IMG/VR virus record: IMGVR_UViG_2718218104_000006
DNA: 58,725 bases
Strand: one strand, 5' to 3'
From: a virus
Taxonomy: Duplodnaviria > Heunggongvirae > Uroviricota > Caudoviricetes
Part shown: positions 36,001-39,000 of the stretch, piece by piece
Position numbering within the stretch: position 1 is the stretch's first letter
Layout of the letters: every line of letters begins with the position of its first letter
Program-made: the position numbers

Positions 36001-39000
36001 TAACCTGTTTCCACTCATTCAGCCCGGTAGCAAACACACTGGCAATGTTTTTATCCCGTTTCATGTCAGCACAAGCCTGGTTGAGTTCTTCCATCACGCT
36101 CATTTTACGGGGATTAACGACAAAACCCTTCGTCCAGTACTCGTAAAGAACATCGTCGCACTCTTCCTGATACCGGATGACCTTATCGCGGATTTCGGGT
36201 TTTACTTTGTTGGGATTAATGGTTTGTAGCCAGCCGGCAAGTTTTCGAAGTGGCATGGACACCATATTGCGTTGTTTCCCATCCTCAGCAACCATAACGA
36301 TTTCCGTTATAGTTGACGCAAAACGCTGTCTTAACTTAGCCAACTGTGATTGCCAGGCCAGCCCCATCCCCGCAACGACAGGTTTCATGGGAACGTATGG
36401 TTCGCCATTATGGTTAACTACATAAAGAGAGTTGCCGTGAAACGGCACGGCCATCATATTCATCGGTTATTTCCTTTTAGTGATGAACCTTGTCTCACAG
36501 GAATCCAGCCCACAGAAAGGCACCGACAGCCAAACCGGTATCCTCAAGGGTCATCCTGAAAGGTTCTGTGTTGTGAGATGCGCGTGAGATGCGCAGAAAT
36601 GACAAAGGCATCATTACGGTGCCTGAGTGTTAAACAACTGTTTTGACTTTATTCACTTACATTTTGCCAATTTGCAGGATTTCGTGTTATCCATCCATGT
36701 AAGCAAACCTCATTTTTCAGCAAAATATTCTGCTTATCTGTCGATTCCCCAGCACGCCAGCGCGCTCTCCTGGTCACGACGGGATACCTGACCGTAACAG
36801 TTGTTTGAACGAATACGGCAGTCTCTGCCACCGTCCTTAATCCACCAGCGAATCGCTTCGCAGGCACCTTTTCGATCTCCTGCATTAATTCGTCTGTAAA
36901 ACGTCGACGGGAAACACTTACCGGGACCAATGTTGTACGGACAGAATGACGCGATCCCCGCTTTCTGGGGTTCGGTCAGCGGCACTCTGATGTTTTTCTC
37001 CACCCATGCCAGCGCCTTATCACGCTCAATGGCGTTAACCCGGTCGCATTTTTCCTTCGACAGCTTCATGCCAGGAATAACAGGCTTACCATCCACCCGG
37101 GTGGCTCCACGGCAGATGGTCCAGATACCCGCACCATCACGGTATGCTGTGGTGTGGTTACCTTCCTTTTCATCCAGAAACTGGTCGAGGATTTCAGGCG
37201 CAGACGCCCCTGCACCAATCAGCGCCAGAACGGCAGCCGACAGGCCGTATCTGATTTTTGCGTTCATGGATATTTATCAGGGTTTATCGATTTCAAATCC
37301 CTGGATATGTTAAGTCTTCAGGCCAGCGGTGGAGTCTTCAGAGAACCCGTAATTATTCCCGGTAGTTTTCCTCTGTAGGTTATCAACACATCCTGCGCCT
37401 CTAAAATTACGGGACGCTTTTCCGGTAACGGACCATCCCCTTCACATAACCCGGCAGCAACATCCATGAAAAACTGCTTCGCCTGCTTTTTCGCCTCAGC
37501 TTCGTAAAACTCCAGCGTGGCACCTTCAGTACGGTCAAGACTAATCGCCACATCTGGCAACAACAGTGACGGATTGAACCGCCCCGGAAATCCTGGAGAC
37601 TAAACTCCCTGAGAAAGAGGTAAACAGGATGACTAAAAATACTCGTTTTTCCCCCGAAGTCCGTCAGCGGGCGATTCGTATGGTTCTGGAAAGTCAGGAT
37701 GAATATGACTCACAGTGGGCGGCAATTTGTTCCATTGCCCCAAAGATTGGCTGTACGCCGGAGACTCTGCGTGTCTGGGTTCGCCAGCATGAGCGGGATA
37801 CCGGGGGCGGTGATGGTGGGCTCACCAGCGCTGAACGTCAGCGTCTGAAAGAGCTGGAACGTGAAAATCGTGAACTGCGCCGCAGTAACGATATCCTTCG
37901 CCAGGCTTCCGCTTATTTTGCGAAGGCGGAGTTCGACCGCCTCTGGAAAAAATGATGCCACTGCTGGATAAGCTGCGTGAGCAGTACGGGGTCGGACCGG
38001 TATGCAGCGAACTGCATATTGCCCCGTCAACGTATTACCATTGTCAGCAACAGCGACATCATCCGGATAAACGCAGTGCCCGTGCGCAGCACGACGACTG
38101 GCTGAAGAGAGAGATACAGCGCGTATACGATGAAAATCATCAGGTGTACGGTGTGCGTAAAGTCTGGCGTCAGTTGTTACGGGAAGGAATCAGGGTGGCC
38201 AGATGTACAGTGGCACGTCTCATGGCGGTTATGGGACTTGCCGGTGTTCTCCGGGGTAAAAAGGTCCGTACGACCATCAGCCGGAAAGCCGTTGCCGCAG
38301 GCGACCGCGTAAACCGTCAGTTCGTGGCAGAACGACCTGACCAGCTGTGGGTGGCTGATTTTACTTACGTCAGCACATGGCAGGGCTTCGTCTATGTGGC
38401 GTTTATCATTGATGTGTTTGCCGGATACATCGTGGGGTGGCGGGTCTCATCGTCTATGGAAACGACATTCGTGCTGGATGCGCTGGAGCAGGCGTTGTGG
38501 GCCCGTCGTCCGTCTGGCACCATCCATCACAGCGATAAAGGCTCTCAGTATGTGTCACTAGCCTATACGGAGCGACTAAAAGAAGCCGGATTACTGGCAT
38601 CAACAGGGAGTACAGGCGACTCGTATGACAACGCGATGGCTGAGAGCATCAATGGTCTTTACAAAGCGGAGGTAATACACCGTAAGAGCTGGAAAAACCG
38701 TGCAGAAGTGGAACTGGCCACACTAACGTGGGTGGACTGGTATAACAATCGACGATTGCTGGGAAGGCTGGGCCATACTCCTCCGGCAGAAGCAGAAAAA
38801 GCTTATTATGCTTCCATCGGAAACGATGATCTGGCAGCCTGAGTTCACAGATAAAACACTCTCCAGGAAACCCGGGGCGGTTCAGATACCCACCAATTTC
38901 CAGTGCCACAGTAACAGTAATCTTATCCGGGTAATTATTTATCCCTTTAACAACCAGTTCGTATTTTTTCTTCATCACTTTACTCTCCCCGCGCCGCCTT

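Follow-up and report, generated by a model that had tools for sequence, protein, structure and literature searches.

The viral record IMGVR_UViG_2718218104_000006 (Caudoviricetes; 58,725 nt, the whole of which we call the window) contains a complete insertion sequence (IS), IS629 of the IS1203 isoform, lying inside a ydfR-family gene between the holin and the endolysin of a prophage lysis cassette. We hold it very likely that this is a recent, strain-specific transposition into codon 31 of the ydfR-family gene, in the Sp9-type prophage of Escherichia coli O157:H7 strain 9234; this judgement is meant for the explanation as a whole, including the little effect on lysis argued below. The insertion had been noticed in a preliminary description of the window. 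That observation is confirmed. It concerns an ordinary, strain-specific insertion of IS629 without claim to novelty: in the RefSeq record of strain 9234, the IS and the disrupted gene are both annotated already. No other insertion sequence is as abundant in E. coli O157:H7 as IS629, and strains are routinely typed by its insertions.

The single IS629 copy of the window (37575-38884) has its transposase genes antisense to the phage late genes. Read directly, its 5′ end is TGAACC and its 3′ end GGTTCA; at greater length, it opens with TGAACCGCCCCGG and closes with the reverse complement of TGAACCGCCCCGG. The terminal inverted repeats had been described as perfect, which is true of the outer 13 bp (TGAACCGCCCCGG) only; the next three positions are mismatched and nine matching positions follow, so that the repeats agree at 22 of 25 positions overall. 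The reported duplication GAT is present on both sides of the element and is exactly 3 bp long, the fourth base being different in the two flanks. A 3-bp flanking repeat taken alone would be expected by chance in 1 of 64 cases; we set this origin aside because an orthologous prophage has the empty site. In strain 1130 this site reads ...GTGACGGATACCCACC..., with a single GAT.

The prophage of strain 1130 adjoins ompW and has the same protein accessions; aligned to the window with the IS deleted, it showed 99.973% identity over 37,362 bp and was free of gaps across the site. The reconstituted 738-bp empty site is also 100% identical in many other O157:H7 genomes, where YdfR family protein, holin and lysozyme are annotated in it. 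A match running in one piece across both junctions of the insertion was found in 1 of 5,426 complete E. coli genomes, that of strain 9234 itself, whose chromosome (NZ_CP017446.1; isolated from cattle hide, Texas) shows full identity to the first 50 kb of the window. As the insertion is present in only one of these genomes and a near-identical sister prophage has an empty site, we take it to be a recent gain private to the strain.

Every sequence feature that defines an element of the IS3 family is present at 37575-38884. The length falls in the range of ∼1.2-1.5 kb, and the terminal inverted repeats have the TG...CA ends. There are two overlapping open reading frames (ORFs) in the 0 and -1 frames, with an A-rich slippery site and a downstream structure (frameshifting is predicted); a DDE transposase with an rve domain that matches the family model; and a short (3-4 bp) target-site duplication, which the empty site confirms. 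The two frames overlap at GGAAAAAATGATG; the slippery run of six A (A6) at 37947-37952 is located within the ALIL pseudoknot. The fused OrfAB protein (404 aa) scored 366.3 bits against the NCBIfam model transpos_IS3 (cut-off 160), and in RefSeq the interval 37629-38842 is a single coding sequence (CDS) with a programmed frameshift. In the mechanism that we propose for the arrival of the element, a -1 ribosomal frameshift at A6, assisted by the pseudoknot, would yield the DDE transposase as an OrfA-OrfB fusion; a circular copy of the IS would be produced and inserted at a staggered 3-bp cut, generating the GAT duplication. This mechanism is established for the IS3 family and, judging from its sequence, the IS of the window has everything that the mechanism requires.

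The length of 1310 bp and the name IS629, both given in the preliminary description, are borne out by comparison with other copies. Over all 1310 bp the element is 100% identical to IS629/IS1203 copies in many O157:H7 chromosomes and pO157-type plasmids, and 1308 of the 1310 positions agree (two differences) with the copy in prophage Sp5 of strain Sakai; other plasmid-borne relatives are ∼96% identical. Names vary between records: the Sp5 copy is labelled both ‘IS1203 Family: IS3’ and ‘IS629 transposase OrfA/OrfB’, while RefSeq calls this isoform ‘IS3-like element IS1203 family’. According to Rump et al. (PMC3271280), IS1203 is an isoform of IS629 and its predominant sub-type in O157:H7, and divergence between IS629 sub-types is 4-5%; isoforms are usually delimited by a nucleotide identity of 95% or more to the ISfinder reference IS629 from Shigella sonnei. 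By its identity or near-identity to copies so named, the window element is the O157:H7 IS629 (IS1203 isoform), and we keep IS629 as the name used in the field.

The split gene is on the minus strand, with the ATG at 38975 and the stop at 37318-37320; position 38978, given earlier as its boundary, belongs to an in-frame GTG upstream of this ATG. When the IS and one GAT were removed in silico, 38975-38888 joined 37574-37318 in frame and an uninterrupted ORF of 114 codons was restored, close to the roughly 110 codons estimated beforehand for a gene between holin and endolysin; its neighbours match the Pfam holin and lysozyme families. This was the check that the preliminary description had proposed: the reconstituted ORF turned out to have abundant homologues, and the ends of the IS match those of IS629. 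The expectation of a YdfR-like gene in the position known from Qin-type cassettes proved correct as well. The 114-aa product matched Pfam DUF1327 (PF07041) with 156.8 bits (cut-off 25; E 1.7e-46; positions 1-92 of the 93 in the profile) and PHROG 406 (function unknown). It is identical to WP_000731241.1, ‘YdfR family protein’, which is intact in strain 1130, differs in one residue from Sakai ECs_1783, and has 47% identity to K-12 YdfR over 74 residues (E 1e-23). No family was matched in NCBIfam, and a PDB sequence search with the restored protein gave zero matches at E up to 1.

With the insertion point in codon 31 of 114, the 5′ part of the gene would be translated into a chimera of 108 residues, whose reading frame stops at 38649, inside the IS. 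RefSeq describes 38886-38975 as an incomplete pseudogene (‘DUF1327 domain-containing protein, incomplete’). For the other side of the insertion it gives a free-standing CDS on the minus strand, 37318-37566, with a CTG start and an 82-residue product of its own (‘DUF1327 domain-containing protein’, WP_096846312.1); this CDS is an artefact of annotation, caused by the IS insertion. As read from the sequence, the ydfR gene is split and intact YdfR protein is lost. All functional data for the YdfR family come from the K-12 protein: in a 2026 study, its residues 1-72 were reported to mediate binding to the catalytic half of RNase E, and it may also be an RNA-binding protein (PMC13232886). Since the break at residue 30 falls within residues 1-72, RNase E binding of the type reported for the K-12 protein should be abolished.

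Features at and around the insertion are collected in Table 1.

Table 1. Features of the IS629 insertion and of the surrounding lysis cassette (window coordinates)
Feature	Position	Strand	Basis
Complete IS629 (IS1203 isoform), IS3 family, 1310 bp	37575..38884	+	Boundaries read from sequence
Left terminal inverted repeat (IRL), 5′-TG start	37575..37599	+	Compared with reverse complement of right end
Right terminal inverted repeat (IRR), CA-3′ end	38860..38884	+	Comparison of ends
Target-site duplication GAT, left copy	37572..37574	.	Sequence and empty site
Target-site duplication GAT, right copy	38885..38887	.	Sequence and empty site
orfA, 108 aa, helix-turn-helix N-terminal part of transposase	37629..37955	+	Pfam HTH_Tnp_1, 2.4e-12
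orfB, 296 aa, -1 frame relative to orfA, DDE integrase-core catalytic part	37952..38842	+	Pfam rve, 9.3e-28; HTH_21, 3.7e-18
Frameshift signal, ALIL pseudoknot	37910..38026	+	Rfam RF01497, 121.5 bits (gathering score 50), E 5e-32
ydfR-family (DUF1327) gene, 5′ fragment: codons 1-30 and first base of codon 31	38885..38975	-	ORF reading
ydfR-family gene, 3′ fragment: remainder of codon 31 to stop	37318..37574	-	ORF reading
Chimeric ORF created by the insertion: 30 YdfR residues and 78 from antisense IS (108 residues)	38649..38975	-	ORF reading
Class II (phage-21-type) holin, 68 aa, intact, upstream of IS	38980..39186	-	Pfam Phage_holin_2_1, ‘Bacteriophage P21 holin S’, 7.3e-33; PHROG holin
Endolysin (lysozyme), 177 aa, first intact gene downstream of IS	36734..37267	-	Pfam Phage_lysozyme, 1.5e-24
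Spanin Rz, with Rz1 embedded at 35335-35520	35273..35740	-	Pfam Phage_lysis, 4.9e-50; Rz1, 1.7e-21
Terminator-like hairpin, 11 pairs (7 G-C) and T-run, between nanS-p-like gene and holin	39242..39268	- (late strand)	Consensus scan only

On the minus strand, which carries the late genes, the holin gene is located upstream of the IS, and the genes for the lysozyme, a P22-type antirepressor-like protein and Rz/Rz1 are downstream of it. The order resembles that of the cryptic prophage Qin of K-12, where essQ-ydfR-rrrQ-rzpQ/rzoQ are a holin, a small DUF1327 gene, a lysozyme and spanins, and where the homologous ydfR is also placed between a class II holin and a lysozyme. The Qin YdfR differs in having 103 residues, in being encoded by an intact gene and in overlapping rrrQ, whereas the window protein has 114 residues, another C-terminal tail and a split gene; also, the antirepressor-like gene between endolysin and Rz is a feature of the window. 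The holin belongs to the S21 family (Phage_holin_2_1), the class II holin of pinholin/signal-anchor-release (SAR) endolysin cassettes. The endolysin (WP_000992148.1; the same protein is encoded in strain 1130) has a Gly/Ala/Ser-rich, weakly hydrophobic N-terminus, MNAKIRYGLSAAVLALIGAGASAPE, which is SAR-like by eye only.

The consequences of the insertion for lysis depend on how the late genes are transcribed. The terminator-like hairpins predicted upstream of the holin (a second, weaker one was seen on the late strand at 39313-39330) imply that the lysis genes would depend on antiterminated transcription. As the hairpin at 39242..39268 already precedes the holin, only terminator-resistant polymerase should reach the lysis genes; a Q-antiterminated polymerase, ignoring terminators and Rho, would then read the late genes through the IS with little polarity. 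Polarity suppression by lambda Q is reportedly a classical result of Forbes and Herskowitz, 1982.

A precedent is offered by Sakai Sp5, an Stx2 prophage with the same element (1270503-1271812, ECs_1208/1209) in the same antisense orientation in a Q-dependent late operon; there the IS precedes the genes for holin, endolysin and spanins and all morphogenesis genes. Sp5 differs from the window in that its IS was inserted at the 3′ end of a nanS-p-like gene, ∼1 kb upstream of the holin and thus outside the cassette, with a 4-bp target duplication (AAAG), and in that its cassette has no ydfR. Sp5 is mitomycin-inducible, packaged and transferable (PMC2669165). That it remains so with a near-identical antisense IS upstream of its lysis and structural genes argues for weak polarity.

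The prophage of strain 9234, furthermore, was already impaired. In gene content and order it matches Sakai prophage Sp9: paa, hokD, a Q-like antiterminator, a DNA methylase, two tRNAs, a nanS-p-like esterase and the lysis cassette, past which the Sp9-type order continues with head and tail genes and then nleA, nleH1-2, nleF, nleG and espM1. Its portal and capsid genes are flagged as frameshifted and tail gene L is truncated; Sakai Sp9 itself was scored defective for repressor, portal and head (PMC2669165). Elsewhere in the genome there are further copies of the cassette: a query with it matched strain 9234 at 11 places, at one of them with 100% identity over 738 bp. Given Q-antiterminated transcription, the prior defects of the prophage and intact cassette copies elsewhere in the genome, the insertion probably has little effect on lysis or on the host, and its polarity on endolysin and spanin is probably modest.

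Several points weigh against so mild an effect. Between the stop of the chimeric ORF and the start of the endolysin gene there are 1381 nt in which no translation is expected in the frame of the original gene. RNA antisense to the IS is C-rich and G-poor in several stretches (plus-strand GC skew is +0.3 to +0.4 at 38100-38250 and at 38350-38500); since Rho favours such RNA, polarity would be expected for transcription not modified by Q. As its Q, this prophage has an antiterminator of the DUF1133 family instead of lambda Q, and resistance of this protein to Rho is assumed. The parallel with Sp5 has its limits as well, since other Sakai prophages could supply lysis functions; this objection is qualified by the fact that Sp5's own structural genes, too, are downstream of its IS.

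One could go further and suppose that the polarity is strong, so that the Sp9 cassette makes holin with little endolysin and spanin and has become a lysis-defective, holin-only module. The long stretch without expected translation and the C-rich, G-poor RNA would favour such an outcome, as would two weak terminator-like sites on the late strand at the ends of the IS (38875..38863 and 37583..37568). We also considered a promoter carried by the IS and directed outward to the endolysin gene; the promoter scan found three sites against 3.0 expected, none of them leaving the left end of the IS on the late strand, and the candidate was rejected; the lack of such a promoter-like site also speaks for strong polarity. 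However, a much stronger terminator-like hairpin stands before the holin, so that any polymerase arriving at the IS must already resist terminators; Sp5, with a near-identical IS in the same orientation, is inducible and transferable (PMC2669165); and many O157:H7 prophages have IS629 in or beside this cassette. We consider strong polarity rather unlikely, though deserving of some weight.

The insertion may still have a measurable phenotype: expression of the pinholin could be uncoupled from that of endolysin and spanin, so that the membrane is depolarised on induction without lysis, or the loss of YdfR could alter the stability of late transcripts or the timing of lysis. We see this as improbable. 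If true, strains 9234 and 1130, being naturally near-isogenic, could be compared to find the function of DUF1327, a conserved gene of Qin-type lysis cassettes.

Two further alternatives concern the origin of the insertion rather than its effect. The IS could be real and yet belong to another, near-identical cassette, or have been misplaced when repeats were resolved in assembly; strain 9234 indeed has ∼38 IS629-matching places (among the matches listed) besides the 11 cassette-matching places, of which one is identical over 738 bp. Both junctions, however, are clean, with a precise 3-bp duplication and a frame that is restored exactly on removal of the IS. Misjoins at repeats do not create target duplications, and a wrong choice of cassette copy would alter only the prophage concerned and not the biology; we give an assembly artefact very little credence. 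Equally little can be said for an old insertion, ancestral in the Sp9 lineage and precisely excised elsewhere by the IS-excision enhancer (IEE): IEE-promoted excision of IS629 has been documented in O157 (PMC9943667; PMC9397093), but just 1 of the 5,426 complete genomes has the insertion, sister strains of the same collection are without the IS and yet 99.97% identical across 37 kb, and other copies in the genome match the IS at 100% identity, so that a single recent gain is far more parsimonious.

The recent gain in strain 9234 joins a large number of IS629 insertions in similar surroundings. A query with the IS in its native orientation found IS629 within ∼1.7 kb of a cassette of this type in 330 genomes; with the IS flipped, the number was 50. 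The same IS, cassette and orientation are seen in strain 9000 and many UK isolates, in NE122 and in ERL06-2442; unlike in the window, the sites hit there are the ant gene, the nanS-p-to-holin gap and nanS-p, respectively, and ydfR is intact in all of these strains. In OK1 and 17B6-2, split annotations of the type ‘lysozyme (x2)’ suggest that the endolysin gene itself is disrupted by IS629. Those neighbouring insertions whose flanks were compared are independent events with duplications of their own, GTA and GAG in the same cassette type and AAAG in Sakai Sp5. Among the 5,426 complete genomes, the ydfR insertion was seen in strain 9234 only. These findings fit published work, in which IS629 is reported to produce duplications of 3-4 bp, to have no target consensus and to reside in prophages in 62% of its copies (PMC3271280).

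The first four neighbouring insertions were all antisense to the late genes, which raised the idea of an orientation bias. The 50 genomes with a flipped IS629, set against the 330 with the native one, speak against it; because genome counts are dominated by inherited insertions, neither a strict orientation rule nor a bias can be claimed.

Inactivation of prophage genes by IS629 has been described before: in O157:H7 the element inactivated a methyltransferase gene of Stx prophage phiPA2 (PMC10810198), and PMC10758439 cites insertions of IS1203/IS629 in stx2 genes. In these cases, as with strains 9234 and 1130, strain pairs differ solely in the position of an IS. The difference is that phenotypes were demonstrated there (induction frequency, toxin production), whereas none is expected for the insertion in the window. 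We found no publication describing strain 9234; PMC10758439 mentions neither the strain nor its accession.

Taken alone, the insertion has very little import: it marks strain 9234 alone, the prophage is defective in other ways, and the lysis cassette affected is duplicated in the genome. Its practical uses are limited to that of a strain-specific typing marker and of a natural knock-out of a ydfR-family gene.

Some side observations were made on the strain and on the prophage. Among the matches listed, of which each record shows at most 40 pieces, strain 9234 and its sister strains (NZ_CP017434-CP017446) have 34-39 IS629-matching places per chromosome, compared with 16-21 in other O157:H7 genomes, which suggests an expansion of IS629 in this cattle-hide lineage. 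The portal and major capsid genes (26974-29552 and 29764-31700) are each one nucleotide shorter than their counterparts in Sakai Sp9, and strain 1130 shares the frameshift flags; these frameshifts may be genuine defects or may stem from homopolymer errors in the long reads. In the tail region, at ∼20051-20413, the window has a truncated L and no K and I, as does Sakai Sp9, whereas L, K and I are intact in strain 1130. The colinearity of strain 1130 with the window ends exactly there, and the difference between the two near-identical prophages probably arose by recombination with another lambdoid prophage.

Two sRNAs were matched in Rfam upstream of the nanS-p-like gene. STnc100 is at 41691-41899 (minus strand, 175 bits); back to back with it, at 41630-41689 on the plus strand, is a match to the anti-GcvB sponge AgvB with 56.6 bits (gathering score 56). 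Genes for tRNA-Arg and tRNA-Ile are located at 42009-42241. The 21-codon astA, encoding the heat-stable enterotoxin EAST1, was found at 7701-7766 within transposase remnants (7556-8139), beside ISEc8, nleF and nleH1-2; it is an already known feature of the cargo region of this prophage.

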